From NCBI GenBank assembly GCA_043745805.1, contig JAYTSD010000004.1, positions 213,150 to 277,149 of the forward strand: DNA of 64,000 nucleotides, written 5' to 3'. This DNA comes from Fibrobacteria bacterium (GTDB lineage: Bacteria > Fibrobacterota > Fibrobacteria > UBA11236). The stretch's first letter is position 1, and each line of letters begins with the position of its first letter. The translations under genes were made by a program, and so were the position numbers. Under the pieces are notes generated by a model. It worked only from the letters and a program-made list of their open reading frames with translations. It was not told where the DNA came from and ran no database searches. Of this stretch, positions 1 to 64,000 are shown one piece after another.

Positions 1-1
1 T

Positions 2-406
2 TTTATTGCGGATGATTATTTTGGTTTTGATGATGCCATTTATGCAGCTTGCCGAGTCCTTAATATTATGGATAAAACCGGCAAAACTATCACCCAACTT
101 CTGGAAGGTGTTCCCCGTTACCCCAATACTCCTGAAATCCGTTGCGAATGCGAAAATGATGATGAAAAATTTAAAATCACTGCCAAAGCTGTAAAGTATT
201 TTTCCGAGAATTATAAAGTTTTAGCCATAGATGGTGTGCGCATTTTGTTCTCTGATGGTTGGGGTCTAGTGCGAGCTTCCAATACACAACCCACTCTAGT
301 CACACGCTTTGAAGGCAAAACGGCTGCACGCCGTGATGAAATTAAAAATATGGTACTAAACAAAATCCAAGAGTTTGGTAATATCATCATTGGATCAAAG
401 CATTAA
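2..406 (+). CDS. Phosphomannomutase/phosphoglucomutase, C-terminal part (5' end outside the window)
   Basis: Frame is open from base 2 (FIADDYFGFDDAIYAACR...). C-terminal DGVRILFSDGWGLVRASNTQP motif is typical of AlgC-type PMM/PGM. Confidence 0.9.
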   Translation, partial: FIADDYFGFDDAIYAACRVLNIMDKTGKTITQLLEGVPRYPNTPEIRCECENDDEKFKITAKAVKYFSENYKVLAIDGVRILFSDGWGLVRASNTQPTLVTRFEGKTAARRDEIKNMVLNKIQEFGNIIIGSKH

Positions 407-425
407 AAAAATATTCTTGTTAAAT

Positions 426-458
426 AAAAAAAGGACGATTACATAATCGTCCTTTTTT
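426..458. terminator. Bidirectional intrinsic terminator
   Basis: A7-GGACGATT-acat-AATCGTCC-T6 between convergent genes. Confidence 0.85.
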
Positions 459-519
459 GCAGCGTTCCTCTGTTACATAGCAATTATCTGACCTAGCAGA
501 GGAGTTCCGTTGCGCGGGA

Positions 520-2499
520 TTATTTTATTTGTCCATTCCTTTTTAGCCAATCTTTCATTGCTAGAAATAAAGCTTGTTTCTTTGCATTACTATTTTCGCC
601 AGCGATTTGAAAAACACCACGTTTTTGGCTGAAAAGATATTCGCTTTCCCCAGAAGAACTAACTGGAGCGAGATTATTCAAATCCCAATCGATGGGTATT
701 TGCTGTGGAAATTGCAAAAGTAACTGCTTCAATTCCAATAAAGCCTCCGCAGATATTTGGACATAAAATCGTATGGCTTTTGTATTATCATTAGGATTAC
801 TTTTAATATTTAAAACTCTTCCTTTTTCCGAGATATAAATATCGACCAAACAAGGTTTTGATTCCAGTCCATCAAAACGAAATTCTTGTGAACTTTGTAA
901 AATGCGATAATTCAATAATGGATCCATAAATTCCAAATCGATTGGAATAATTCTTTCTCGTAATTCTAAAGAATCAGCAGTATAACGTTGTATCAGATTG
1001 GATCCTTGTGGATTCGAAATGTGAAAAACCTCAACCCCTTTTCCATTCATTTCTATCATCATGGAACCTACGCGCTCTGATGAACTTGTATTTTTATACC
1101 ACGATGACTTTATGTTTTCTAATAAATGAATATTTTGAAAATAATCGACTTGTTTAAAACTGCGTAGGCGCATTGCTTTGCCACGTGTCACATTATCCGG
1201 AACAAGCACAAAACTGACTTGCTGCCCAGGCTTTAATTGTGAACTATTTAACGATTGTTCATAGGTGTGAAGGTTATACCGCAATAATGCATCTTGATGT
1301 CCAATGCCTCCTTCACCGAGATTTTGTAATTCCCCTCCTAACGGTAAAACTATATAATTAGGTAATGAGGTATCGCCTACAAAGCTTATTTCATCAAGTC
1401 CCCAAAATTGCAAATCATTTCCCTGTAATAATTTTTTCTTATTGATCTTAAATTTCCAGTATACTTCTCCATTAATAGATCCAAAATTAGTCGGCTCAAT
1501 AGCTTGCGCATCAATTATAAAATATGGCATTGTTTGTTGAGATTCACTGGCAAGATTAAAAATCCACTTCTTTTCTACCATGCCACTTTGTAGATAAATT
1601 TTCAAAACAATCTTATTGCTAAACCCTTCCAAAAGCATATTTGAATTCATTTCTAAACTTGGAGCCAATTTATATTGGCTTTCCATATCGGCATTCAAAT
1701 ATTTATTGTGAGGGATGCTTTTACCATTTGCGCTCCAAACTACCGAGTCAATCAAGGCCATAGGAGCATCCACTTGCACTTGAAAAGCCCAAGGCAATTG
1801 GCTAAATGAGGCTCTGATGGTATCACCCATATTTCCATCTATCACATAGCCATAATTAAGCTTGAGCGTGTCGGCTATAGTTGTTTTGCGACCAGGTTCG
1901 ATATGAATAGGAATATTATTTAAAGGATTAGCCCCTTCGTATTGAACAGTTAATAAATAATCCCCAGTTGGAATTTTGTTAAAGTTGAAGCGACCATTTA
2001 ATTCCGACTCAATTGTCCATGGGGTTCCAATTAAATGTAAAGTGAATTTTTTGTGGTGCAAGGGATCGTTCGTCCAAGCCACGCCTTCAATGGATCCGAG
2101 GCTGTCGAGACGTAATTTACTTAAATTATTTTCCATCTCGGGATTGTAATTATAATCGTATACCAAGCCCAAATTTACGCTATCGGTTGCAATTAATAAA
2201 TAATTACCGGCATCCATTTTAGTAAAGCTGAATTCACCATTATCATTTGAAGTTGTTCGAAATATGGCTCCATCCTTACGAGAATACATAGAGACTGAAG
2301 CATTTTTTAGTGGATCATAATGTGGGTTTAAAATCATCCCTGTAACATTACCCGCTTCGGTGCCGCCACCGCGGGGTGTAGAACTCAACCTATTATCTAA
2401 ATCAAAGGTTTGGTCGCAACCTATTAATAACAAGCCTGCGAAAAAGAAAAACAGCAATGTTTTACGATTTTTTTTCACAGAGGCGAAACTCAATTCCAT
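520..2499 (-). CDS. Lipoprotein with carboxypeptidase-regulatory-like (beta-sandwich) domains, partner of a TIGR02147-type gene
   Basis: Lipobox LLIGC, GGGTEAGN linker, G-x-F-x-F...G-x-Y repeats. Start placed at ATG 2499 (GAGGA RBS upstream) rather than the track start 2580. Confidence 0.7.
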   Translation of the reverse strand: MELSFASVKKNRKTLLFFFFAGLLLIGCDQTFDLDNRLSSTPRGGGTEAGNVTGMILNPHYDPLKNASVSMYSRKDGAIFRTTSNDNGEFSFTKMDAGNYLLIATDSVNLGLVYDYNYNPEMENNLSKLRLDSLGSIEGVAWTNDPLHHKKFTLHLIGTPWTIESELNGRFNFNKIPTGDYLLTVQYEGANPLNNIPIHIEPGRKTTIADTLKLNYGYVIDGNMGDTIRASFSQLPWAFQVQVDAPMALIDSVVWSANGKSIPHNKYLNADMESQYKLAPSLEMNSNMLLEGFSNKIVLKIYLQSGMVEKKWIFNLASESQQTMPYFIIDAQAIEPTNFGSINGEVYWKFKINKKKLLQGNDLQFWGLDEISFVGDTSLPNYIVLPLGGELQNLGEGGIGHQDALLRYNLHTYEQSLNSSQLKPGQQVSFVLVPDNVTRGKAMRLRSFKQVDYFQNIHLLENIKSSWYKNTSSSERVGSMMIEMNGKGVEVFHISNPQGSNLIQRYTADSLELRERIIPIDLEFMDPLLNYRILQSSQEFRFDGLESKPCLVDIYISEKGRVLNIKSNPNDNTKAIRFYVQISAEALLELKQLLLQFPQQIPIDWDLNNLAPVSSSGESEYLFSQKRGVFQIAGENSNAKKQALFLAMKDWLKRNGQIK

Positions 2500-2515
2500 T
2501 GTGTAGTCCTCAGTT

Positions 2516-3340
2516 TCATTTGCGCGTGAGAGGGAATAATTGCAAATTGCATTGGAAAATTCTATCGGGCTTAATTTCATCTAAAGCCATTTTTAATATT
2601 CTTTTTCGCAATAATCGAATTTCTTCTACCGCGGCCAAAAAACTAGTGTCCGACAAAGTTACCGTGAGCACAGAAATATCTCGGTCAGGATGAGGAATTC
2701 TATCAATGGCTGTTTTCGCTAATTCCATAGTAGCCACTTGAAAATTCGCCACCTGCAAAGATTTTACTTCATCCCCAGTGCCAATTAAATTTTCTTTTTG
2801 ACGATAAATTCCTTTACCGTCTTTTTCGATTAAACCTAATTGCGTCAACACTTCTATCGCTTCTTTGGCATCTTGGGTTTTGATACTGGGCAACATTTTC
2901 TTTGCAAGCGCTTCATAATCATTTCGAAAAGGAAAGAAAAATAAAAGCTCCCTAATAGCAACATAATGCCATTTGGAAAATAATTCGTATTGTGATTCTT
3001 CTATTTTTTTTATCCGCAAAGGTTTAATAGAAAGCAAATTACGGAAAAAGCGATTTTTATCCGCTAAGGTTTTGGACTGATTAAAGGCGACTAAGTTTTC
3101 AAAATAAAAAGTGGATTTTTTGTCGAGCTGCAAAGCTTCGGCTAATTTGCTTACATGCGAGAGTGGTAAATTACGTTTTTTGGTAATGATATTGGATAAA
3201 AAACCACTGGAGCTCACACCCATTTTAGCCAATAAATAACGATGGGAAAACTTAGGCTTAATCGCCTTCATTTCCTTCAACCAATCCGATAGATATTGGC
3301 GATAATCGTAATATGCAAAAAGATCCAATGAACTGTTCAC
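2516..3340 (-). CDS. TIGR02147 family protein (HTH plus DUF4423-like putative regulator)
   Basis: YYDYRQYL...FSHR N-terminus, WHYVAIRELL, RDISVLT and terminal CNLQLFPLT motifs. Confidence 0.9.
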   Translation of the reverse strand: MNSSLDLFAYYDYRQYLSDWLKEMKAIKPKFSHRYLLAKMGVSSSGFLSNIITKKRNLPLSHVSKLAEALQLDKKSTFYFENLVAFNQSKTLADKNRFFRNLLSIKPLRIKKIEESQYELFSKWHYVAIRELLFFFPFRNDYEALAKKMLPSIKTQDAKEAIEVLTQLGLIEKDGKGIYRQKENLIGTGDEVKSLQVANFQVATMELAKTAIDRIPHPDRDISVLTVTLSDTSFLAAVEEIRLLRKRILKMALDEIKPDRIFQCNLQLFPLTRK

Positions 3341-3417
3341 AAGATCTAGTATAGATTGCAGAATTAAATGGCGCTGCCCATTTTAAAAAATTACTGCTTA
3401 CAAATTGGGAGCAGGTT

Positions 3418-4530
3418 TTAACCCTTATAGGTATCGCCAAAGACAATATCCGGCTCATTTTTTCCATTTAGCTCTTTTACTTCATGGAATACACGACCCC
3501 GATAATTCACCACACTGGCAAAAAAAGCATCTAATTCAGTAAAAAATTCATCCGTAGATTGTGACCTTAATAAGGTGGTACGCCCTTTGGCACTATTGGG
3601 TAAGCATTTCATAGTACGCGCCGCCATTTGCTTGAGCTTGCCTAGCACGCGCATTTCTATGTCCATTTCTTCGCGCAATAATTCGGCATAGAGTCGAAAA
3701 ATATCGCGTTGTTCATCGAGTGTCGGCTCTTTAGGAATAATGCCGGCATAGACATCGGCCACTTGATTGAATATCCAAGGATTATGCATCGCGCCGCGAC
3801 CAATAGCCACACCGTCTACGCCCCATCGCTCTAATTTATCCACCACATCGTCTACCGTGAGGATGTCCCCATTGCCCACCACGGGAATGCTTGCACGACT
3901 TTTGGCTTCCGCCATAATCTCCCAATTGGCCAAACCCTTATACCCTTGTGCGCGCGTGCGGCCGTGAATCACTAAGGCACTAGCCCCTTCGCCTTCAACA
4001 ATGCGTTGAGTTTCGGGTAAGTTGATGCAATCATCACTCCAACCAATTCGCACTTTTACTGTAACCGGGATTTTAACTGCCTTTTGCACTTTGCCGATAA
4101 TATTTTTCAAATTATCTAAGTCTTTAAGCAAACCGGAGCCGCCACCTTTTTGCACTACTTTGGGCGCGGGGCAACCACAATTGATTTCCACAAAATCAGC
4201 ACCGCAGTCTTCTACCATTTGCGCTCCCCAAGCCATGCGCTCAGGTTCGCCACCAAAAATCTGTACCGTAAAAGGACGTTCTTCTTCCGCAAAAGCCATT
4301 TGTCGACAACATTTGGGATTCAAGCGGGTAATCCCTTCCACCGAAACAAATTCCGAAACCATTAAGCCTGTGCGTCCGCCCGCTAGGCGAGAGACTAATC
4401 GACGAAAAGAAATATCGGTTACCCCAGACATAGGCGCTAAATACACATTGGGGAAAATATCTTTTCCCGCTACCGTGTAGCGTTGTTTAATCTTGGCGGC
4501 TCTCGCCAATAAATCTTCGTGATAAGTCAT
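3418..4530 (-). CDS. dusB: tRNA-dihydrouridine synthase (DusB/NifR3 family)
   Basis: LAPMSGVTD, EINCGCP, VKVRIGW, IHGRTR and GNGDI motifs. Confidence 0.9.
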   Translation of the reverse strand: MTYHEDLLARAAKIKQRYTVAGKDIFPNVYLAPMSGVTDISFRRLVSRLAGGRTGLMVSEFVSVEGITRLNPKCCRQMAFAEEERPFTVQIFGGEPERMAWGAQMVEDCGADFVEINCGCPAPKVVQKGGGSGLLKDLDNLKNIIGKVQKAVKIPVTVKVRIGWSDDCINLPETQRIVEGEGASALVIHGRTRAQGYKGLANWEIMAEAKSRASIPVVGNGDILTVDDVVDKLERWGVDGVAIGRGAMHNPWIFNQVADVYAGIIPKEPTLDEQRDIFRLYAELLREEMDIEMRVLGKLKQMAARTMKCLPNSAKGRTTLLRSQSTDEFFTELDAFFASVVNYRGRVFHEVKELNGKNEPDIVFGDTYKG

Positions 4531-4553
4531 TTTATTTTTTTCCCAGCCGTTTA

Positions 4554-5813
4554 CTATGCAGCTACGAAAGCATTTTTATAAAGAGGAAAATGCGCACATA
4601 ATTCTTTAACGTCATTATGAATCGTTTGCAAATACGCTTCATCGCCTACATGCATTATTGCTCTATCAATAAAATCCGCTACTTGACGAATTTCACTCGC
4701 ACCCATGCCACGTGTAGTAATAGCTGCCGTGCCTAAGCGCACGCCCGAGGGATCCATGGCTTTTCGCGTATCAAAAGGTACGGTACTACGACTGCAAGAA
4801 ATTCCAATTTTATCGAGCGCCACTTCAGCTGCTTTACCCGCAACATCTTTGTTACGTAGATCAACAACCATCAAATGATTATCCGTGCCGTCGGTTAAAA
4901 TGCGATAACCTTTTTCCATTAATGCCGACGCTAAAGTTTGTGCATTGATAATCACATTTTTCGCATAGGTTTGGAATTCAGGTTGCAAAGCTTCTTTAAA
5001 GCAAACCGCTTTAGCAGCATTGATATGATCATGTGGGCCGCCTTGTATACCAGGGAATATGGAACGATCGATATCCTTTTGGAATTGGCTTTTGCACATG
5101 ATAATCGCGCCGCGCGGGCCACGCAAAGTTTTGTGAGTAGTCGTAGTTACTATATCAAAAAGAGGCACGGGATTCTCAATAGCTTTACCGGCTATGAGGC
5201 CTGCGACATGCGCAATATCACCAAAAGTGATTGCACCCACTTCGTCGGCAATACTTTTAAAAGCTTTCCAATCGATATTGCGTGAGTAAGCGGAGAAACC
5301 GGCGATGATCATTTTCGGACGTTCACGCAAAGCAATTTCGCGTACTTTGTTCATATCAATACGACAAGTTTTTTCATCCACTTCATACTGTGAAAACTGA
5401 TACATCATACCGGAAAAATTCACGGGATGGCCATGGGATAAATGTCCACCATGATCGAGTTTTAAACCAAGCACTTTATCGCCAGGTTTTGCCACCGCTA
5501 AATACACCGCTAAATTGGCAGGCGAACCGGAAAGTGGTTGAATATTAACATGCTCAGCACCGAATAATTCTTTGGCGCGCGCAATGGCTAAAGTTTCCAT
5601 TTGGTCGATGACTTCATTGCCCCCATAATAGCGTTTGCCAGGGTAACCTTCGGAATACTTATTGGTGAGTACGGATCCCATGGCTTCTAAAATTGCTGGG
5701 CTCACATAATTTTCGGAGGCGATAAGCTCAATGCCTTCTTCTTGGCGTTTGGCTTCATGCTGAATAATTTTCAGGATTTCGGTATCGGTGTGCTTTAAGT
5801 TTTGCATAGTCAT
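4554..5813 (-). CDS. glyA: Serine hydroxymethyltransferase
   Basis: LIASENY, NKYSEGYPGKRYYGG, TTTTHKTLRGPRG (PLP lysine). Confidence 0.98.
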   Translation of the reverse strand: MTMQNLKHTDTEILKIIQHEAKRQEEGIELIASENYVSPAILEAMGSVLTNKYSEGYPGKRYYGGNEVIDQMETLAIARAKELFGAEHVNIQPLSGSPANLAVYLAVAKPGDKVLGLKLDHGGHLSHGHPVNFSGMMYQFSQYEVDEKTCRIDMNKVREIALRERPKMIIAGFSAYSRNIDWKAFKSIADEVGAITFGDIAHVAGLIAGKAIENPVPLFDIVTTTTHKTLRGPRGAIIMCKSQFQKDIDRSIFPGIQGGPHDHINAAKAVCFKEALQPEFQTYAKNVIINAQTLASALMEKGYRILTDGTDNHLMVVDLRNKDVAGKAAEVALDKIGISCSRSTVPFDTRKAMDPSGVRLGTAAITTRGMGASEIRQVADFIDRAIMHVGDEAYLQTIHNDVKELCAHFPLYKNAFVAA

Positions 5814-6058
5814 CCGGCTTTAAAGGAAGCGGCAAATGTAGAAAAATCACGGGTTTTATTGGGCGGGAAAGATGTTACTCGGAATTGAGAAATTCGGGAC
5901 GCTAAAGGATTTTATCAGCTATTAAAACAAAAATAACCTAAGGCAAGCTAACTACATCTAAATCAATTAGTTTCATTAACCCAAAATACCAGTTTTGGCG
6001 TATATGCAAAAAACCAAAGCTTCCCTTAGTTGTTCGTAACTCCTAAATTTTAGCTCCT

Positions 6059-55149: not shown

Positions 55150-55434
55150 TTATTCGTTTTCGCCGATGATGATGATTCCGCGAATATGATTGGGCATGAT
55201 TATGAATTCGCCTAATTCTAATTTCATATCGGATCGTATATTTGAGGTGTTGATCCATTCATTGTATGCAGCTTGGCCTAATTCGTTTAAAATCATTTCG
55301 CTGTTTTGGATTTTGCCGAAATAATGTTCGCGGTTTTTGGTGCAAATGGTGATGAAATATAAGGCGGGTAAATTGTAATTCCAATTTTTCCAGCGGGCAG
55401 AGGGTATGCGATATTTGTTTTTGAATTTTTCCAT
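55150..55434 (-). pseudogene. Truncated REP-associated tyrosine transposase (RAYT/Y1 HUH)
   Basis: KYRIPSAR...W.Y...YFITICT..RE..FG...MPNHIRGII. The second HUH His is Arg, and the ORF stops at 94 aa before the catalytic Tyr region. Confidence 0.85.
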
Positions 55435-55564
55435 TTGTGATTTTCTGATGTTGTTCCAAATCTTTATGAATGATATTTAAATGGTATAAGTATTACGTGA
55501 TGCTTATCACAGCATGTCCGATTGTGCTTGCTATGTTGTAGGCAGAACAACCCGGAGAATATTT

Positions 55565-56449
55565 ATGTCAACTCAAGATTGGAATGCCTATTGGGTAGAA
55601 CGTTTAAAGAAAGAAATTCGCGCAAGAAATTATTCTAAAGAAACGGAGAAAAATTATGCGTTGGCGCTGCGAACATTTTTGGAAAAATGTCCAGGGAATC
55701 CCAAAGAAAAAAGTCAGAGAATTGTGCAATCCTTTCTCTTGGATATTCGCGAGAAAAATGGATTAAATGCTTCGACCATTAATCTTTATCGTGATGGACT
55801 AAGTTTTTTCTTTCATCATGTTTTGAAAATGCCAGAAGTCATTGAAGGAATTCCGAGGTTAAAAGAACAACAGGCTTTACCTGATGTGTTTGATATTCAT
55901 TCGATGGCTCGTATGTTAAATGGCATTGAGAACCCTAAACATCGACTTGCGCTATCTTTAATTTACGGCTGTGGACTTAGGGTTGGTGAAGCTGCGTCTC
56001 TGCAACTCAACGAAATTGATTTTGCGCGCAAAACTATTATGATTAGGCAAGGCAAGGGTGGAAAAGATAGAATGGTTATGCTACCTGAAAGCTCGACTCC
56101 CCTTCTCCGCGCGTATCTTAACGACTATAGTCCGAAGAAGTATTTATTCGAAACCTCCATTCCGGGAAAGCCTTTAAATAAGCGTACTTTTCAACTGGTT
56201 TTTAAAGCTGCCTGTGGAAAGGCTGGAATTATTCAAAAAGGAGGGATTCACAGTTTGCGTCATTCCTTTGCCACTCATTTACTGGAGAATGGGACGGATT
56301 TACGGTATATTCAAGCGCTTTTGGGGCATTCTAATTCCAAAACCACGGAGAGATATACCCGGGTGGCGACGAATCATGTCGTTTCCATCAAAAGTCCGAT
56401 GGATATTTTACCTTTAACAGCAACGGATCCGCTTCGCACTAGGTCATAA
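55565..56449 (+). CDS. Tyrosine recombinase, integron-integrase-related but lacking the IntI-specific insertion
   Basis: SAM-like N-terminus (RNYS.ET..Y); GLR, GKGGKDR, HSLRHSFATHLLE, LLGH and ERYT catalytic residues intact. Only about 15 aa between LPES and YLF. ATG 55565 follows a GGAGA RBS. Confidence 0.92.
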   Translation: MSTQDWNAYWVERLKKEIRARNYSKETEKNYALALRTFLEKCPGNPKEKSQRIVQSFLLDIREKNGLNASTINLYRDGLSFFFHHVLKMPEVIEGIPRLKEQQALPDVFDIHSMARMLNGIENPKHRLALSLIYGCGLRVGEAASLQLNEIDFARKTIMIRQGKGGKDRMVMLPESSTPLLRAYLNDYSPKKYLFETSIPGKPLNKRTFQLVFKAACGKAGIIQKGGIHSLRHSFATHLLENGTDLRYIQALLGHSNSKTTERYTRVATNHVVSIKSPMDILPLTATDPLRTRS

Positions 56450-56487
56450 AATCGGGACTTATTACGAATCAGATCACACAAGTGGTA

Positions 56488-56494
56488 GTTATGC
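56488..56494 (+). other. attI-like core site (GTTATGC)
   Basis: First GTT after the integrase. It complements GCATAAC at 57950-57956 and has no hairpin site body upstream. Confidence 0.65.
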
Positions 56495-56650
56495 AACATA
56501 TTGCGTTTAATATGTTGCTACTCGATTTTCCAATCGAGTAGCAAGTTAAATAGTCTGTTTTTAGGGGGCTGAAAACCCAAATCTTAGAAGACTCTGGTTT
56601 GGAATTCTTTTGCTAAGGTATTAAATTAGAATTTGCGGAGATCAAAAAAT

Positions 56651-57268
56651 ATGAAAACTTGGACAACGCTATCCTTTTGTATGGTCTGTCTTCTATGTCC
56701 AGAAGCCAAAGCCTCCTGCGATACTTCTGTCGATCCAAATTTGGAATTTCATCTTGCGGATAAAGACACTCAAATAAACATCCATGAGGGGAATAGTGTT
56801 TATGGCATTAAAGGTGGCCCTGATACAATAATGCTCATAATCAGTTCACCAGGAATGATTCGATTTACAAAATCGCTTTTAAATTCGAACAAAATGGATA
56901 CGCTCTACAAAGTACTCTATCAAGATACGATACTCTCAGCAGAAAGTTGGGATATCAATTTTAGTAACTTCAAAAAAATTATTGCGGACAAAGGCATTTC
57001 ACCACACCAAGCCATTTTTGACAGAAAAACTCCGCTTGATACGATATATATTGTCCCTGATCCAAATGGCAAGCTTTGTCTCTCTAGTGGTGGCTTTTTT
57101 GACTTCCAAATCACATGGATTGGCCATGATGTCGCACAATGGTATAATTCACCAACGATTTTGAACAAACGGGCCAGCAACGATAAATCCCATCGGAAAC
57201 GCTTTTATTTGGATGGGAAATTTTTCTGGAAAAATGACGTGTTTCTTACGAATGGGAAATCACAATAA
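56651..57268 (+). CDS. Secreted hypothetical protein (unit 1)
   Basis: Signal peptide MKTW...EAKA; GGAG RBS. Confidence 0.7.
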   Translation: MKTWTTLSFCMVCLLCPEAKASCDTSVDPNLEFHLADKDTQINIHEGNSVYGIKGGPDTIMLIISSPGMIRFTKSLLNSNKMDTLYKVLYQDTILSAESWDINFSNFKKIIADKGISPHQAIFDRKTPLDTIYIVPDPNGKLCLSSGGFFDFQITWIGHDVAQWYNSPTILNKRASNDKSHRKRFYLDGKFFWKNDVFLTNGKSQ

Positions 57269-57286
57269 ATCACTGACTGGGTAGCT

Positions 57287-57895
57287 GTGGAATCATTAAT
57301 CAAATACCTTACTCTAACAAGAATTATATTTGTCATTTTTTCTTGCTCCGTGGCAATTCTGATTTTTCCAACTTCCTGGCAGCAAAAGTTAATGCTGATT
57401 CAGTTTGTTTCGGATTGGGGGAAATATATTGGGATAACTGCATTGGTATCTGGAGGAATCCTTTTCACATCACTTTTAACAAACTCGTTGGGGTTCACTT
57501 ATGGAGTTACCAGTAAACTCTGGAAACGGAAAGAATTTAAATCCAAATTGAAGAAGTACGTATCTTCTCTCGATGCTTTGGAGCAAGCTGTTTTGAGAGA
57601 ATTTTATACCCAAAGACAAAACTCTATCTTGGTTCCATATAACGATGTGAAAATTCAGTCTCTTCTAGCTAAAGGCATTCTTAAATTGGTTAGTCCCGTT
57701 GGGAAAATCTCTCTAGCAGGTCTGATGGTTAGTGTATTCATTTCTGATGCGGCATCCGACCTTATTGATAACGCCGCCCTTGGGTTGCCCGAAGAGTTAG
57801 TGCCATCCGAATCGACAATCAATTTTATTAATCGCAATAGACCTAGTTGGTTGAATGAAATTCGGAGAATGAAAGAGATATTTGATTGGTATTAG
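57287..57895 (+). CDS. Superinfection exclusion B (SieB)-like membrane protein (unit 1)
   Basis: Two N-terminal TMs, then L...EQAVLREF...Q....VP.....IQSL..KGIL winged-helix-like pattern. Confidence 0.7.
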   Translation: MESLIKYLTLTRIIFVIFSCSVAILIFPTSWQQKLMLIQFVSDWGKYIGITALVSGGILFTSLLTNSLGFTYGVTSKLWKRKEFKSKLKKYVSSLDALEQAVLREFYTQRQNSILVPYNDVKIQSLLAKGILKLVSPVGKISLAGLMVSVFISDAASDLIDNAALGLPEELVPSESTINFINRNRPSWLNEIRRMKEIFDWY

Positions 57896-57949
57896 ATTAG
57901 CATTCAGTGAAAGTAAATACGCCCCCTAAAAACGAAACGCAATACGATC

Positions 57950-58199
57950 GCATAACACAGCCCAGGGTGCTCCGCGCGTGTTTCCACACGCGCTCCGGGG
58001 CTTCGCCCAAATGGTTTTTTGGATTGGTCCGGCTGTTCAAACTCCCTTTCGAGACGGCGCGACGAAACGTCGCTTGCTCTCAAGGGGTTTTCACAGCACG
58101 CTGCGGGCGTTCATTACGGGGGCTTCCGCCCCACTCCATTCTCGTCCTCGCGTTACGGCCCTAATCCAAAAAACCACTTCACCCTCTGCAACGTTGGGC
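57950..58199 (+). repeat. attC-like site, long type, copy 1 (250 bp)
   Basis: GCATAAC...GTTGGGC with nested stems (e.g. TGGTTTTTTGGATT/AATCCAAAAAACCA); 6 substitutions versus the copy at 62312-62561. Confidence 0.85.
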
Positions 58200-58356
58200 G
58201 ACAGGGGCCTCGAAAAGTTGGCCTTCAGCCAAAGTATTGAAACTATTTTTTGGGGGCGAAAAGAAAAATAATGGAAAACAATAAAGAATGAAAACCAAAA
58301 ACGAAATTCAAAAAAATCAAATGATCGTTTTGCTTTAAAAAGTAAAGTAAGATGCC

Positions 58357-58419
58357 GTATAACAAAAGTTTCAAAAATCCTTCGCACGGCTGTGCTCACT
58401 GCTTAACTGTGTGTTATAC
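58357..58419 (+). repeat. Degenerate canonical-type attC inside unit 2
   Basis: GTATAAC-5nt-TTTCAAAA...GCTTAAC-5nt-GTTATAC; spacing and the L' GCTTAAC match aadA-type attC. Confidence 0.65.
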
Positions 58420-58556
58420 GGCCGAAAAAATTTGAAAATATGGAATCGAAAAGAATGGTTAGTCAATCGGTTTGAAGGGGCGTAATTTTAAGGCCTGGTA
58501 TTGAGGTCATTGGGAAATGTAAATGAAGCTACATTTCAAACAAAAGGAGGGAAGAG

Positions 58557-59282
58557 ATGAAAATAACCCTACAAAACCTTCTATTATTTCTTTGCCTAAC
58601 TGGATCAGTTATTGAGGCAAAGGGAAACGGTGGAACTGTACACGTAAAAGGATACACCCGTAAAGATGGAACCTATGTTCAGCCACATAATCGGACAGCT
58701 CCGGACGGAAACTTTAATAATAATTGGAGCACCCAAGGGAACGTAAATCCATATACTGGGGAAGATGGAACAAAAACAGAACCATCCTCGTCTTTAAATT
58801 CGTTGTCTCCTTCACCTGACGCAAGATCGTCCGCAACTGTTCGTACAAATACGACAACTCAGAGTTTTGGAGTTACCTCAGAATCAGAACCCGAGATAAC
58901 GACTGATAACTACGGCTTCTACAAAAGGCACCTAGAATATTATCACGGGGTATTATCGGATCAAAATTCAAACGCATTGGCCAAAGAAAGTGCGCGAAAC
59001 GTAATCAGACAGTATGAAGCATCGGTTAAACTTTATGAATTAGAGTCAGCAGATCCTCCCACGACAAATAAGGAAGACGCTGGTTCCAAATCGAAATTAG
59101 CAGACAAAGATTTTTTGAAAGAGTGCAGTGATCAGTTCAAAATAAATACGTGGGTTCCTGTAGCTTGCAGGGATGACGAAATGTGTCGGAAAATAGGAAC
59201 GCACGGCTTCGAAAATGAGACATGGCTTCCTGCCGCTTGTGCCCAAACACGATCACTGCAAAGCATTACTCCAGAAAAATAG
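58557..59282 (+). CDS. Secreted hypothetical protein (unit 2)
   Basis: Signal peptide; conserved-looking VKGYTRKDGTYVQPH.RTAPD...NNWST.GN.NPYTG motif; AAGGAGG RBS. Confidence 0.8.
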   Translation: MKITLQNLLLFLCLTGSVIEAKGNGGTVHVKGYTRKDGTYVQPHNRTAPDGNFNNNWSTQGNVNPYTGEDGTKTEPSSSLNSLSPSPDARSSATVRTNTTTQSFGVTSESEPEITTDNYGFYKRHLEYYHGVLSDQNSNALAKESARNVIRQYEASVKLYELESADPPTTNKEDAGSKSKLADKDFLKECSDQFKINTWVPVACRDDEMCRKIGTHGFENETWLPAACAQTRSLQSITPEK

Positions 59283-59472
59283 ATTTTAAGCAAGTTAATT
59301 TATTTGGGTTAGACAAATTGTCTAAAATATTGATTCACTCCCAAGAGGACCATCTGAAAAGATCTAAATGACCATCATTTATGGTCGCCGCATAACAATC
59401 GAGTCTCTTTAGCCAAGTTATGTCAAGAGGAAGACAAAGACCGCCCCCAAAGAAATATCGAGGCCCACGATC

Positions 59473-59504
59473 GCCCAACAAGCGCCATGGCGCGAACGTT
59501 GGGC
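59473..59504 (+). repeat. attC-like site, minimal (32 bp) deletion derivative of the short type
   Basis: GCCCAAC-aa-GCGCCATGGCGC-gaac-GTTGGGC. Confidence 0.75.
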
Positions 59505-59600
59505 GACAGGGGCCTCGAATTGTGGCCCTGCGGGCCAAAGATAAAGATTATTTTTTGGGGGCGAGAAATAAGCAAACTAATTCAAGAAAACGAGCGCGGT

Positions 59601-59873
59601 ATGAACCAAGTTGATCCAATACTAAAATGCAGAAAATGTGGAAAAGAAATCTCGAAATTTAAACAGAATGCAGAACAGATTTATGAAGGCATGCATAGGC
59701 TTTGTTTTCATTTTGAGTATGAACACGAAGGCGAACCAGATGAATCCTGCGCAGACGATTCTTCCTGTCCAAACTTCAAAATCAAAGTTTATGAAAAAAA
59801 ACTGAAAGAAGCTGGAGTAGATCTCCAAAAAGTACTAGAAGAAGAAATTAAAAAAGGATGGAATCCGGATTAA
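59601..59873 (+). CDS. Small Cys/His-rich protein (unit 3)
   Basis: CxxC...MH..CFH..YEH...PD..C.D..CP pattern; ATG 59601 inside the unit. Confidence 0.7.
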   Translation: MNQVDPILKCRKCGKEISKFKQNAEQIYEGMHRLCFHFEYEHEGEPDESCADDSSCPNFKIKVYEKKLKEAGVDLQKVLEEEIKKGWNPD

Positions 59874-59882
59874 AAAACAGCC

Positions 59883-59947
59883 GTGTAACAATCTATTTAA
59901 CCTGTCAAGCCCTTCGCCCTCGTTTGCAGGTTAATCGGGCATTATAT
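59883..59947 (+). repeat. Degenerate canonical-type attC inside unit 3 (core GTT decayed to ATT)
   Basis: GTGTAAC-aatct-ATTTAACCTG...CAGGTTAAT-cgggc-ATTATAT, 9 nt after a stop codon. Confidence 0.65.
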
Positions 59948-59977
59948 GGATAAGAATAAAATTAATGAAGGAATGAA

Positions 59978-60694
59978 ATGGAAGACAAGCCTATCCTGGA
60001 TAAAAACAAAACCGAGTTCATAAAATTAAACAACTTGATAAATCAAATTGTTTACGAAAATCGCTTTTCATTGAGTGATGCAAATCGGGTTTATTTGGAT
60101 TCGATCTTAAAATATTCTGATACTATCTTTAACTCGATTTTAAAACGAGATACCCTATTGTTTCGTTCTCGCATAAACAAAATAAATCTCGATAATTTAA
60201 GTGGTGAGGATGTCACACATCCGATAAAAGATATGGGGGCGCCTCCTAAAGCACTTGCTGCCGCTGGAAGAATAAATCCTGTTGGAATTCCTTACCTTTA
60301 TTGTTCCGGCGAGGAAAAAACGGCAGGCGCGGAATCAAGACCGGATAGTGGAAATTACATTACGATTGCAAAAATAAATGTGTTGAAAGATCTAAAAATT
60401 GCGGATTTCACAGTGAACTTTTCAGGAAACGAATTAAGCGAATATTTTCAAATATTATGTTCAGTATTTAGCACTCAATGGCCTGCCGAATACAAAAACC
60501 ATTATTTAATTTCACAATATCTGGCTTCACATTTGAAGACAAATGGATTTCGTGGCATTAAATACAAAAGTGAAGTTAATGCCGATGGGACAAATTTTGC
60601 TCTTTTTCACAAAGAAGATTATGAAATTCGAGAAATCTATTCCAGGCAAACTGTCCGAGTTGATTATTATTTTCATACACCAGGTCATGGGTGA
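59978..60694 (+). CDS. RES-domain protein (putative NAD+-degrading toxin or defence effector; unit 3)
   Basis: MGAPP...AGRINPVGIPYLY...AESRP...GF.GI.YKS...G.NFALF (R, E, S residues). Confidence 0.88.
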   Translation: MEDKPILDKNKTEFIKLNNLINQIVYENRFSLSDANRVYLDSILKYSDTIFNSILKRDTLLFRSRINKINLDNLSGEDVTHPIKDMGAPPKALAAAGRINPVGIPYLYCSGEEKTAGAESRPDSGNYITIAKINVLKDLKIADFTVNFSGNELSEYFQILCSVFSTQWPAEYKNHYLISQYLASHLKTNGFRGIKYKSEVNADGTNFALFHKEDYEIREIYSRQTVRVDYYFHTPGHG

Positions 60695-60787
60695 CTCTAA
60701 TCCGGAACAATTCTTATGTCCTCAGTCTTCGACCTTAAAATACGACAAAGGAGAAGACGCCCCCAAAAAGAAGCGAGGCCCCCGATC

Positions 60788-60843
60788 GCCCAACATGCGC
60801 CATAGCAAAATGATAACACTTCGCTATGGCGCGAACGTTGCAT
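60788..60843 (+). repeat. attC-like site, short type, copy 1 (56 bp)
   Basis: GCCCAAC-at-GCGCCATAGC-aaaatgataacacttc-GCTATGGCGC-gaac-GTTGCAT. Confidence 0.85.
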
Positions 60844-60944
60844 GCAATTGCCCCCACACAAGAGAATGCAAATTACGGAATTACAAAACCGCCCCCCAAG
60901 AAAGAGAGCAGCGAAAATAACGATGATATTCTAATTTATTCTAA

Positions 60945-62108
60945 ATGAACAAAGTTATTTCACCGAAAACAGTACTTATCCTTGGAGCTGGGGCAAGCCA
61001 TGACTGCGGCTTCCCCTTAGGTATTAAACTAATCGACCAAATCATTACGGCGCACCAGGATAAAAAGTTTGTATTATCACTTCGTCGAATTCTTTACAAT
61101 GCCCGAGATTATCTTCGTCGAAATAATCTTTTTGATTTACTTCCTCCCGAAATCGGAGTAGTTCTTTTAAGCCATCAACCATATAGAATATTTGATTTGA
61201 ATGATAAAATCCTTACTGATTGGGTGGTCACCTTAAACGTGTTCAAGTCCATCGACGAATTTATCTCGTACCATAAAAAATATTCGCTGTTGGCGAAGAT
61301 TTCTATCCTGCTAATTCTGTCGAAGTGTGAACTAAAGGAATTTTTTGACAACAGGCATCAAAATGATCAAGTGAAGTCCTATTTTGGACCAGAGCGAACT
61401 TGGTACAATGCCCTTTGGGGAAATATCACCAAAAAGGGGCCAACGTTTCAACAACTAGAAGAAATTCTTAAGACAATTCACATCATAACTTTTAACTATG
61501 ATCGCTCTCTTGAATTTTTTCTGGTGGAAGCAATAAAGAAATTTTTTCCTGAATCCGAGAAGCCTTATACCGATCTTCCAATCACTCACGTCTACGGGTC
61601 CCTTGGACAATTGGATACCCAAAGTGATCTTTTTAATCCATACCAGCAAGTTCCCTATATGAGTGGAAGCACTATTCCTGATGGTTTCCAAATGAATACA
61701 TTCAGTACCTACTTAGGGGAAAAGCAAGAAGATGCAATGCGGACAAAGTACGATGAGCATTTAATCAAATTGGCCACATCGATTGAAACCTATGGGAACG
61801 CCTATCCAATTGATAAAGCGGAAAAAATACAGCAGATGATTATCGAATCAAAAAACACCTACGTTTTTGGATTCTCTTTTGCTGAGCAGAACATGAAAAT
61901 CCTTTTCAAGGGAACTCCTAAGAGACAGCCCCAATGGATATCCAAAGGCACATTCGATGGCTCATGCTATGGAATTTCTAGAGAAATGCAGTTTGATCTC
62001 AAAACATTTTCGTCTAAGTATTTTAAAGGAACTTCTGATTTCTTAGACGATTCTAGAAGAAAAGTTTCTGTCGCAGATTTTTTCACCGACTATTCCATAA
62101 AGATTTAA
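60945..62108 (+). CDS. SIR2-like domain protein (unit 4)
   Basis: VLILGAGAS...FPLG, IITFNYDRSLE, HVYGSL, FGFSF..QN. Confidence 0.85.
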   Translation: MNKVISPKTVLILGAGASHDCGFPLGIKLIDQIITAHQDKKFVLSLRRILYNARDYLRRNNLFDLLPPEIGVVLLSHQPYRIFDLNDKILTDWVVTLNVFKSIDEFISYHKKYSLLAKISILLILSKCELKEFFDNRHQNDQVKSYFGPERTWYNALWGNITKKGPTFQQLEEILKTIHIITFNYDRSLEFFLVEAIKKFFPESEKPYTDLPITHVYGSLGQLDTQSDLFNPYQQVPYMSGSTIPDGFQMNTFSTYLGEKQEDAMRTKYDEHLIKLATSIETYGNAYPIDKAEKIQQMIIESKNTYVFGFSFAEQNMKILFKGTPKRQPQWISKGTFDGSCYGISREMQFDLKTFSSKYFKGTSDFLDDSRRKVSVADFFTDYSIKI

Positions 62109-62311
62109 AGCCGCTTTTTGAATATCATTTCAAAGTAAAACAAATTGCACACAAACGTTGCATGGTGAAATGCTATGCACTTCACCATACCTGAAGAAGC
62201 AATTAATTAATTACATGAAGAGGGGGCGGAAAGAAAAAATTATTTGTCATCCCCTGTGTGTGGGGGCAACTCGGACTGCGCGCCGAAGCGGCGCTTGCCG
62301 GCCTGCGGCGC

Positions 62312-62561
62312 ATGCAACACAGCCCAGGGTGCTCCGCACGGGTTTCCACCCGCGCTCCGGGGCTTCGCCCAAATGGTTTTTTGGATTGGTCCGGCTGTTC
62401 AAACTCCCTTTCGAGGCGGCGCGACGAAGCGTCGCTTGCTCTCAAGGGGTTTTCACAGCACGCTGCGGGCGTTCATTACGGGGGCTTCCGCCCCACTCCA
62501 TTCACGTCCTCGCGTTACGGCCCTAATCCAAAAAACCACTTCACCCTCTGCAACGTTATCC
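62312..62561 (+). repeat. attC-like site, long type, copy 2 (250 bp)
   Basis: ATGCAAC...GTTATCC; body near-identical to 57950-58199. Confidence 0.85.
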
Positions 62562-62740
62562 AAAAAACCGGGGGCAAGATTATAAAAGAAAATAGCGAAG
62601 ACCGGCCAGCGAAGAATCAAAGCAAAGACAATTAGCAAAAGACAAGAAGGAACGAAGAAACTAATTAGCGAAGACAAGACGCTGGCCGGAAGAAAGATCC
62701 TTCGTGGTCTATACCCTGGGCCCCCGTTTTTTCAGATAAC
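62555..62740 (+). other. ORF-less cassette-like unit 5
   Basis: Complementary arms 62555-62575 and 62720-62740 enclose an A-rich segment with an internal IR CCGGCCAGCG/CGCTGGCCGG. Confidence 0.75.
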
Positions 62741-62935
62741 ATCGCGCCATCGTGCTTCGCTCCGCCGTACCGGCTCCGCTCGGGGCTTCGCCCAAATGGT
62801 CTTGCAGGGTGGTTTGGGCATTTCCAATGCCACGCTCCGGGCGCCGCCTACGGGGGCCATACGGCCCCACTTCGGCGACGTCCTCGCGTACAAACCAACC
62901 CTGCAAGCCCACTTCACGCTGGCGCTACGTTGTAC
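62734..62935 (+). repeat. attC-like site, intermediate type (202 bp)
   Basis: AGATAAC-atc-GCGCCA...TGGCGC-tac-GTTGTAC; shares GGGGCTTCGCCCAAATGGT, TACGGGGGC, CGTCCTCGCGT and CCACTTCAC with the long type. Confidence 0.8.
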
Positions 62936-63030
62936 GCAATATGGCAGTTTAAAGTGTTGCCTTCCATCCCTTCGGGACGAAAGACAAAAAAAGAATTTAT
63001 TTTTTAATGGGGCGAATTATAATACCAAAA

Positions 63031-63600
63031 ATGAAAATCAAAAAAAATATTAGGAATAAACTTTATTTTGCATTCGCACTTATCATGTCAATTTTAGGAA
63101 TTTCCGCCTGTGGACCTCATTTGATCAACGAAAAGAAATTCTTAGAGGAAAATCCCTTAAAGGAAGATGATAGTGAAAAATACTCAATAGAAATTAGAGT
63201 CTGGCAAAACTGTTCCCTTTCCACATTTTTACTGTTATTATTTTGGAATAGCTGCGAAGAGAATTACACGGTATATGTCAAATTGGAAACGAAAGATGCT
63301 AATGACACTGGAAAATCCGTTTCCTTCGAAAGTGTGAAAGTTGAAGCAAATGGAATTGAAAAAGAACTCATTCCAAAAGATTTACCCCCTTCAATAATGA
63401 AATTTAAAAAAGACTATCGAGAAGGCATAGAAATATCCGAGGGCTTTTATGTAGGGAAAGAGTTCACATTCCAAGATAAAAATAAGATTAGGGTGAAATC
63501 GAAATTCAAGCTGATGGAAAAAAACCAATTTATTGAAAAAGATGGTTTATTTGTAGTAAAGAAAGAAAGAAAAATAGGTTTCATGTATTATCGAATTTAA
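63031..63600 (+). CDS. Hypothetical lipoprotein (unit 6)
   Basis: Basic N-terminus, hydrophobic core, ISAC lipobox; ATG 63031 lies just inside the left arm. Confidence 0.75.
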   Translation: MKIKKNIRNKLYFAFALIMSILGISACGPHLINEKKFLEENPLKEDDSEKYSIEIRVWQNCSLSTFLLLLFWNSCEENYTVYVKLETKDANDTGKSVSFESVKVEANGIEKELIPKDLPPSIMKFKKDYREGIEISEGFYVGKEFTFQDKNKIRVKSKFKLMEKNQFIEKDGLFVVKKERKIGFMYYRI

Positions 63601-63644
63601 AATCAAAAAGACGCCCCATTAAAAATCAAGAACTGCCATACGGC

Positions 63645-63700
63645 GTACAACATGCGCCATAGCAAAATGATTTCACTTCGCTATGGCGCGAACGTTATGT
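63645..63700 (+). repeat. attC-like site, short type, copy 2 (56 bp)
   Basis: GTACAAC-at-GCGCCATAGC-aaaatgatttcacttc-GCTATGGCGC-gaac-GTTATGT; body differs from 60788-60843 only in 2 loop bases. Confidence 0.85.
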
Positions 63701-64000
63701 GAAAGTTTGCCTAAAAGTGTTGCCGGCCGAACTTGCAGTTCGCCCGGCAATTTTATTGAGATGAATTCTATTATGGGGCGGGGAAGAGAAGAAATTACGA
63801 ATTACGAAAGAAAAGACGCACGCCGGAAAGAGAATTGCAAACCGAACATCTTTTCAATACCTTATTGTGCGAACGGTCTAAATGTTTCACTATTTTAGAC
63901 CCTGCTCTTATCGGCTTAAATTCGAACCAGCTATGCTGCTAATTTAAGTTTAAAAAAATCATTTGGCGACATCATTCCTAATCCCGAATGTGGCGCATAG

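Follow-up and report, generated by a model that had tools for sequence, protein, structure and literature searches.

Overall Organization of the Locus

The window analyzed here is the whole stretch of DNA of 64 kb that forms the final part of contig C4 of a Fibrobacteria genome (G000; 3.95 Mb in 50 contigs, 99% complete). It contains the gene of a tyrosine recombinase, designated IntX, followed by an array of cassettes that runs from about position 56545 to the contig end, and this study mainly concerns two successive cassettes of that array, U2 and U3, which have related ends (the family-1 arms, together designated the shell) around different cargo genes. The cassettes are numbered in succession from U1 to U6; their open reading frames (ORFs) all have one orientation, with GC-rich repeats in between, and pieces of similar arrays are also found at the ends of contigs C9, C17, and C29 of G000. 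Relatives are designated by other G-numbers, and the genomes compared comprise 32 in the taxonomic family, 39 in the order, and 296 in the phylum. The coordinates of the features are collected in Table 1.

Four sediment-metagenome runs of one study contain the stretch as contigs, and no RNA data set was among the listed runs that contain it. Those of runs X1 and X2, which may be the source sample, bridge positions 58166–62368 unbroken; in X3 and X4, positions 58557–59417 are uncovered at a depth of ~3, and this was not counted as evidence. At its far end, positions 63906–64000 of the window recur reverse-complemented at positions 1–95 of contig C16 of G000. Contig C16 has an ORF resembling a transposase gene, and an insertion sequence probably interrupts the array there and broke the assembly.

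Table 1. Positions of the recombinase, junctions, cassettes, arms, internal sites, and cargo genes in the window
Feature	Position	Strand	Description
IntX	55514–56449	+	311-aa tyrosine recombinase, IntI/Xer-like, oriented as the cassettes
attI-like hairpin	56513–56551	+	TTGCTACTCGA..TCGAGTAGCAA; GTTAAAT immediately after, where the first cassette, U1, starts
U1	56545–57950	+	First cassette; ends GTTTTTAGGGGGCT/CGCCCCCTAAAAAC agree at 13/14
D1a junction	57944–58199	+	R'' GCATAAC, 242-nt structured D1, R' GTTGGGC; nhmmer 189.8 bits
U2	58193–59479	+	Cassette with family-1 arms
U2 left arm (family 1)	58193–58262	+	GTTGGGCGAC..GGGCCTCG, side hairpin, TTTTTTGGGGGCG
Spacer	58263–58352	+	Purine/A-rich, from left arm to first C-type site; arm-spacer-site order in 8 loci
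C1	58353–58422	+	C-type attC without variable terminal structure; degraded L box, all 10 R-box pairs present
241-aa ORF	58557–59282	+	Signal-peptide-like N terminus; orphan cargo of U2
C2'	59386–59431	+	Truncated C-type site, 5' half only: R'' GCCGCATAAC and start of L''
U2 right arm	59437–59479	+	AAGACCGCCCCCAAA..CGAGGCCC..GATCGCCCAAC
H18 core	59480–59497	+	L-box palindrome GCGCCATGGCGC and GAAC; D1-type site without variable part
U3	59498–60794	+	Cassette with family-1 arms
U3 left arm (family 1)	59498–59567	+	Repeat and map matches
90-aa Cys-rich ORF	59601–59873	+	Orphan; no Pfam/NCBIfam family; in 1/39 order genomes (itself)
C3	59879–59950	+	C-type attC without variable part; L box intact, R' ATTATAT for GTT..
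RES-domain protein	59978–60694	+	238 aa; PF08808, 2e-14; no antitoxin-like partner recognized
U3 right arm (family 1)	60752–60794	+	Repeat and map matches
H42 core	60795–60836	+	10-bp L-box hairpin and GAAC; second copy 63652–63693
U4	60837–62315	+	Other shell family; ends pair mutually; 387-aa ORF
D1b junction element	62316–62557	+	Repeat and map matches
D1 shorter copy	62746–62928		Insert-bearing form

Junctions between Cassettes

The cassette boundaries are attC-like junctions, in each of which an R'' box (..AAC) is separated by a short spacer from an L-box hairpin, with an R' box (GTT..) at the end. The plan they have in common is ..RYYYAAC, 1–2 nt, a hairpin, GAAC, and GTTRRRY.., in which the hairpin is either bare (type H) or has an insert of ~200 nt (type D1), and AAC..GTT is present in all seven junctions read from 57944 to 63700. 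The 242-nt D1 copies of the window are 98% identical exactly between AAC and GTT, and the flanking cassettes differ. The consensus fold of D1, derived from 17 copies in 7 genomes, has 64 pairs, 45 of them with double compensatory changes, the R- and L-box stems included. With regard to the bare junctions, the L box of H18 is comparable to D1 L boxes, and H42, for which there is a 96% repeat at 63648–63696, folds together with its R boxes (60788–60843) at −17.3 kcal/mol (z = −5.3; the fold tests were made with bottom-strand DNA and the z-scores are relative to 200 shuffles).

D1 is an element of ~250 nt, rich in GC, with invariant loop motifs such as CGGGGCTTCGCCCAAA, CCCACT, and TCCTCGC, and it is also found on contigs C9 and C29 of G000 and in many related loci; the copies of the window are at 57954–58192, 62316–62557, and 62746–62928. 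The search with a D1 core pattern was noisy, with up to 3 control matches per genome; exact matches alone were used, and loosely. Rfam at gathering thresholds identified only tRNA in the whole window, and at E ≤ 10 gave only chance matches in 56400–64000, with no attC-like, intron, or ribozyme family. D1 may act as single-stranded DNA, in the manner of a complex recombination site, or else as an RNA.

The Shell of U2 and U3

Same-strand comparison of U2 with U3 by blastn at E < 0.01 gives two matches, one over positions 1–70 (81.7% identity in 71 columns) and the other, at 86%, over the terminal 43 nt. The remaining same-strand matches all have E ≥ 0.7, and the reverse-complement arms match from E = 0.017 up. 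In the left arm, the first 22 and the last ~20 nt are identical, and the intervening hairpin differs by compensatory changes. An initial annotation of this DNA, the motifs of which were located where it placed them when the sequence was re-read, described the arms as near-identical and the interiors as unrelated. The interiors are indeed unrelated, with similarity confined to the ends; the arms are shared, but the degree of their identity was overstated.

The two ends of a cassette pair with each other. An ungapped scan for end repeats gave 11 pairs as compared with 0–4 in 20 shuffles, a mixture of true ends and chance pairs, and was replaced by a matrix of duplex energies for 10 cassettes of the window and of G013. 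In this matrix, the duplex between the first 60 nt of a cassette and its own last 60 nt has a mean energy of −21.9 kcal/mol, as compared with −12.0 for non-cognate ends, and each of the six cassettes that are not of family 1 has its best partner, in both row and column, in its cognate end (tied in one case). Arms that face each other across a junction of cassettes from different families pair weakly (U1|U2, −8.7; U3|U4, −4.9; U5|U6, −7.6 kcal/mol); the cognate duplex of U4, at −20.1 kcal/mol, compares with the −4.9 of the U3|U4 junction. Five cassettes in a 28-kb array of G013 have ends that are complementary in at least 8 of 9 positions, as read by eye. The arm haplotypes also covary inside cassettes (GTTGGGC with GGGCCTCG, GTTGCGC with GGGCCTCG, and GTTAGGC with GGGGCTCG), a covariation that is absent across the first junction of G045. 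The U2|U3 junction with both arms (59441–59565) folds at −42 kcal/mol (z = −7.7) and resembles one 125-nt hairpin because both neighbors share one arm family. Since pairing is with the cognate end rather than with the neighbor, the shell is the outer stem of the junction, split between the two ends of a cassette; rather than a container, it is a long stem in two halves on either side of an attC-like junction. The view that it serves as a capture device is not supported, and no capture step is visible. With the crossover placed by inference at the R' box, ~70 nt of conserved pairing sequence lies 3' of GTT at each cassette start, in place of the ~6 nt of a canonical cassette. The stem would thus extend outward past the crossover, unlike that of a classical attC, and its halves would be rejoined only in the excised circle.

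The shell is a reused family, as had been proposed. Family-1 arms are present in 15 of the 32 family genomes (one of the 15 being the unpublished G021). These genomes represent three genera and have as many as 11 matches each, and in 20 aligned copies conservation extends over ~70 nt of the left end and ~42 nt of the right end, with divergence beyond. In G000, three left and four right arms of family 1 were detected, and every one of these is in an array contig. The shell of U4, which belongs to another family, is reused in G006 (contig C35) with unrelated cargo and has no C-type site (see below). One shell with varied cargo is the rule for this type of cassette.

Other features of the shells were noted. 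The left arms of several families end in GGGGGCG and are followed by a purine-rich leader with GAAGA/GGAA repeats (58263–58352 and 63780–63840 in the window; 3305–3395 in locus L024). U5 (62558–62745) is a cassette of 188 nt without an ORF, which has the paired ends GTTATCCAAAAAACCGGGGGC and GCCCCCGTTTTTTCAGATAAC and an inner inverted repeat. A lone family-1 shell cassette with a truncated D1 is present outside any array in G004 (contig C100, ~104500–105250; locus L062). Host coding sequence is directly duplicated for ~130 nt on its two sides, suggesting that the cassette inserted at a site that is not part of an array.

Canonical attC Sites inside the Shell

The canonical attC of the relatives, designated C-type, is a family of sites of 105–175 nt with the form GCCGCATAAC...GTTATRCGG. 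Fourteen of these fold as textbook attC sites, in which an unpaired spacer separates the R box from an L box that has two bulges and 3–7 compensatory changes per pair, and the distal part is variable; the C-type is a genuine attC family. A covariance model, R1, was constructed from the 14 sites, two of which are from the unpublished G021, and all 64 kb of the window were scanned with it on both strands with filters off, giving a list of 40 matches. Full-length members of the family have R1 scores of ~55–156 bits and short forms ~35–46 bits, and the best unrelated match in the window is 11.8 bits.

According to the initial annotation, the interiors of U2 and U3 hold three decayed attC sites. 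Scored with R1, two of these rank first and second of the 40 matches and the third is at background. (i) C3 in U3 has the highest score (38.5 bits, E = 1.5e-8; 37.9 bits and E = 1.3e-6 genome-wide). The change of its core GTT to ATT was confirmed at position 59941 by re-reading the sequence; the R box is unpaired, and the fold is unexceptional (z = −0.8, with 40 of 200 shuffles as good). (ii) C1 in U2 is second (29.8 bits, E = 3.2e-6). It has six non-standard pairs in the L box but a significant fold (z = −4.8, none of 200 shuffles as good), and it aligns with full-length sites as an internal deletion. (iii) C2', at the other end of the U2 interior, scores 6.1 bits (E = 7.6) and has no fold (z = +0.2, 104 of 200 shuffles as good). 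In C1 and C3, 74–76 model positions of the variable part are missing, and none of the three sites combines an intact GTT with paired R and L boxes. C1 and C3 thus belong to the attC family that adjoins the integron integrase (IntI) in relatives, and the proposal that a constant shell encloses pieces of canonical cassettes is retained for them.

The third site, described as a shrunken remnant at 59390–59423, corresponds to a C-type site of which only the 5' half is present. A truncation of the same type precedes the right arm in 3 of the 20 aligned family-1 copies (U2, G004, and G017) and is also found in contig C131 of G042 and contig C17 of G000; the truncation is old and does not represent local decay. 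The H junctions also are without a variable part, and shrinkage is therefore not specific to unused sites.

An integrase-less cluster at 124000–126900 of contig C46 of G000 (locus L163) has two full-length C-type sites with R1 scores of 124–140 bits. It contains repeated small two-gene cassettes that resemble toxin-antitoxin pairs, with short GTCGCCGCATA... hairpins ~200 nt past each site.

Cargo Genes

The 241-aa ORF of U2 lies between GTTATACGGC and GCCGCATAAC, as was confirmed on re-reading the sequence. The protein has no Pfam or NCBIfam family. Matches were found in 4 of the 296 phylum genomes, all of them confined to an N-terminal motif, and in 32 metagenome loci, where they reach residue ~94 at most and mostly cover residues ~8–80. 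The RES protein of U3 is found in two of the 39 order genomes, G000 itself and G010 (35% identity). R1 identified no sites in the 32 metagenome loci or in the RES locus of G010. The three cargo genes of U2 and U3 are orphans, and the search for their homologues is uninformative on an origin in canonical integrons rather than negative. The neighboring cassette U1 carries a gene of the SieB family (57287–57895; superinfection exclusion, PF14163, 2.5e-24); this gene and the RES gene of U3 both fit defense or toxin cargo.

IntX and IntI

The gene for IntX adjoins the array, which begins 65–95 nt past its stop codon; a hairpin and GTT comparable to the attI-like hairpin of the window are present downstream of IntX in G013. 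The catalytic domain of IntX is recognized by PF00589 (1e-40) and by PF13495, and the protein is under the cut-offs for XerA (199 of 220 bits) and for the integron integrase, TIGR02249 (194 of 265 bits). TIGR02249 covers IntX in two stretches only, positions 3–178 and ~237–314, and BLASTP alignment with the IntI of a relative (29% identity) has gaps of 31 and ~10 residues at the extra domain. IntX thus lacks the ~35-residue IntI-specific insert near patch III. Its closest named relative is from a metagenome-assembled genome of a "Fibrobacteres bacterium" (49% identity). A second IntX is encoded on contig C9 of G000 (positions 1–6000; locus L165); it is 41% identical and divergent from its D1-bounded array, in which one long unit has several ORFs on the opposite strand. 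IntI was assigned for matches above the TIGR02249 cut-off of 265 bits. By this definition, 17 of the 32 family genomes have IntI, and a search of the G000 genome gave none, the best match being 128 bits.

An ORF of 94 aa on the minus strand (55150–55434), directly upstream of IntX, looks truncated. It has no Pfam match at E ≤ 0.01 and contains PNHIRGI, which we take to be similar to the HUH motif of transposases of the IS200/RAYT type (RAYT, REP-associated tyrosine transposase; REP, repetitive extragenic palindromic).

Site Classes Beside Each Recombinase

In an nhmmer map of sites in 50 loci, 14 of which have IntX, D1 is the first site detected beside IntX in eight and the C-type in none. The eight loci are from seven genomes of four genera (g1, g3, g5, and that of G000). 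For IntI, the map includes 14 loci or flank pieces; a C-type site comes first in five of them (contigs C262 of G044, C53 of G013, C17 of G002, C13 of G009, and C281 of G042) and a family-1 arm with D1 in one, with none detected in eight. All three IntI attI junctions that were read (G043, G044, and G045) open the first cassette with a C-type R', GTTAGACGGAC or GTTATACGGAC; in the sole IntI locus with D1 first, the attI junction reads GTTAGACGGAC, a C-type R'. In G013, which is IntI-positive, 2 of 22 C-type matches are in the contig of the IntX array; the others are elsewhere, one such contig containing IntI.

Nesting of C-type sites in shells is also found in the relatives. Contig C7 of G045, beside a genuine IntI, has a family-1 shell around three ORFs and two full-length C-type sites, and in the IntX array of G013 one C-type site lies with ORFs inside a family-1 shell. 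Nesting thus does not result from the loss of IntI. A C-type site follows a family-1 left arm within 32–115 nt in eight loci, two of them from the unpublished G021, and a cassette of G017 with an unrelated gene is laid out as U2 is, with a C-type site, the ORF, and a truncated site in this order between the arms. In G043 and G044, a block of right arm, D1, and left arm follows an ORF and precedes the next C-type site.

U2 and U3 as Probable Composite Cassettes

We consider it more probable than not that U2 and U3 are composites in a non-canonical integron-like array, units at the level of IntX that enclose cassettes, or relics of cassettes, at the level of IntI. IntX would recombine the D1 and H junctions, an assignment that we infer from adjacency alone. 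The family-1 arms characteristically carry a canonical C-type attC behind the left arm, and the turnover of cargo in the constant shell would most likely reflect IntI recombination at these inner sites, in IntI-bearing ancestors or donors. What remains now would be relics, with damaged internal sites, in a genome without detectable IntI. The decay of the internal sites is in part ancient truncation and in part unexplained.

Several observations weigh against this interpretation or restrict it. The short DNA examined beside IntX has no detectable site in 6 of 14 loci, and in G009, which has D1 junctions and the shell, IntX was not found at E ≤ 1e-40 with the query used. R1 matches occur in 11 of 14 IntI-positive and 5 of 6 IntI-negative genomes (20 genomes, from g1, g2, g3, g5, and g6), and no relation of C-type sites to detectable IntI was seen; the model is specific to this clade and distinct from the attC model of IntegronFinder. 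In the two arrays that were sampled independently of the shell query, the window and contig C85 of G013, all four significant C-type sites are inside family-1 shells, two per array, a small sample. Most shell-bearing loci were retrieved with the shell as the query, which biases the link between family 1 and the C-type. The contigs of the four metagenome runs have no joint that skips U2 or U3, the three joints listed reflecting repeats elsewhere, and full-length C-type sites persist on contig C46 of G000. As the cargo genes are orphans, their origin is untraceable. Finally, the U4 family reuses its shell without a C-type site, and internal turnover by IntI is therefore not a general explanation for the reuse of shells.

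The initial annotation had read the shell as a reusable device with which the recombinase of the array captures DNA from IntI arrays, the attC sites of which it then ignores, so that they decay. The presence of the same shell with differing cargo in 15 of the 32 family genomes agrees with this, as do the membership of the internal sites in an IntI-linked attC family, their lesions, and the failure to find IntI in G000. There is also a route by which U2 and its counterpart in G017 could have arisen in this manner: IntI would integrate a shell circle, by way of the C-type site inside it, at two positions of a canonical array, and excision between the two D1 sites would follow. However, no capture step can be seen, and none of the integrons examined contains a homologue of the cargo genes. 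Disuse as the cause of the lesions is not supported; against it stand nesting beside a genuine IntI in G045 and in the IntI-positive G013, the truncated site common to G004, G017, and G042, the intact C-type sites of C46, and the H junctions, which are shrunken as well. The lesions themselves and the lack of a detected IntI stand, and we regard this explanation as a whole as unlikely. A single class of recombinase that acts on all sites, with D1/H and C-type sites interchangeable and the nesting a historical accident in a mixed array, seems less probable again. The R-box consensus of attC is RYYYAAC/GTTRRRY, with which GCCCAAC/GTTGGGC conforms; both site classes have canonical R boxes, and both are found in IntI-linked as well as in IntX-linked arrays. 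Free internal exchange would nevertheless split cognate arms, which match in U2, in U3, and in shells of G013, G045, and G044 (G013_a, G045_a, and G044_a), and with 2–3 mismatches in G017_a, in each case across the internal C-type sites. The order of sites also argues against it: the C-type is first after IntX in 0 of 14 loci, and the IntI attI junctions have a C-type R' in 3 of 3.

The right arm, D1 or H, and the left arm might also be viewed as one small non-autonomous insertion inside C-type cassettes, resembling an intron, a REP, or a miniature inverted-repeat transposable element (MITE). Such a block does lie between an ORF and the next C-type attC in the IntI arrays of G043 and G044, a truncated HUH-like ORF is present just upstream of IntX, and the shell cassette on contig C100 of G004 is outside any array. 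In contrast, the blocks at U3|U4, U4|U5, and U5|U6 and at junctions J3 and J4 of G013 are chimeric, with unpaired arms of different families, and each arm pairs instead with the far end of its own cassette. The family-1 arms detected in G000 are all in array contigs, and no intron or ribozyme was matched in Rfam. The mobile-insertion model was rejected because the arm blocks are chimeric, and we consider it highly improbable.

The interpretation of U2 and U3 as composites points to a two-level system of gene capture. A more specific form of it, which we put forward tentatively and regard as possible rather than probable, is a hierarchical integron with two recombinases. In this, IntX would move units bounded by D1 or H, the split outer stems of which tag both ends; the family-1 adapter would hold an internal canonical attC at which IntI loads, swaps, or unloads ordinary cassettes; and IntI cassettes could in turn carry D1 junctions.

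Relation to Known Systems and Significance

Sedentary chromosomal integrons have homogeneous families of attC sites, as in the arrays of Vibrio cholerae repeats (VCR). The present array is similar in that cassettes of one orientation adjoin a tyrosine recombinase, that one family of sites is associated with unrelated, mostly orphan, genes, and that an L-box hairpin and R boxes of the form AAC..GTT are present at the junctions. It differs in that its recombinase, IntX, is without the IntI insert, that the variable part of the site is a conserved multi-helix element of ~200 nt, that conserved sequence is split over the cassette ends (70 and 42 nt) and pairs across the cassette, and that a second, canonical class of attC is nested inside U2 and U3. 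Clusters of attC sites lacking integron integrases (CALIN elements) have no bona fide IntI, and contig C46 of G000, with its two full-length C-type sites, has such a cluster. Tyrosine recombinases without the intI_Cterm domain that occur near attC sites are described by Cury et al. (2016, PMC4889954) as ones that "are not IntI" and co-localize with fewer than three attC sites; the IntX clade differs from these in that it adjoins arrays of the D1 type in eight loci of seven genomes and four genera.

There are also precedents for structured elements in such positions. The DUF1874 motif is a conserved multi-stem motif of consecutive intergenic regions, for which Weinberg et al. (2017, PMC5737381) proposed a possible role as a complex single-stranded-DNA attC. 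D1 is similar as a recurring multi-stem element and a possible complex attC. It is nevertheless another motif, with no Rfam match at E ≤ 10, and an integrase adjoins the D1 array, whereas none was seen beside the DUF1874 runs. Group IIC-attC introns (PMC3001079) are likewise structured passenger elements at attC sites in cassette arrays. D1 differs from them in that it matches no Rfam family and shows none of the features of an intron or a reverse transcriptase, and in having R and L boxes of its own and bounding units with cognate ends. Insertion of cassettes by IntI outside att sites, as described in a preprint (bioRxiv 10.1101/2022.09.11.507474), is a known process that could bring a canonical cassette into another unit; as presented there, it involves no second recombinase, and nested cassettes are not demonstrated as its product. 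In the literature searched, we found no account of an insert-less recombinase at the head of such arrays, of arms that span a cassette, or of nested attC classes, although supplementary catalogues may contain relevant cases.

The origin of integron cassettes is stated to be unknown by Cury et al. (2016, PMC4889954). The locus described here bears on the open question of how cassettes are built, because its units have both ends marked by sequences that pair mutually. Two classes of sites are found beside two recombinases, and one class is nested in the other, with clear cases in at least four genera; the specificity of each enzyme for its sites and the cross-loading of the two systems become testable with defined substrates. 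A recombinase without the IntI insert can head long arrays of cassettes, which standard integron finders would report, at best, as integrase-less clusters. If the hierarchical arrangement of two recombinases is correct, co-integration by one enzyme and excision by the other would be a natural and observable origin of composite cassettes.

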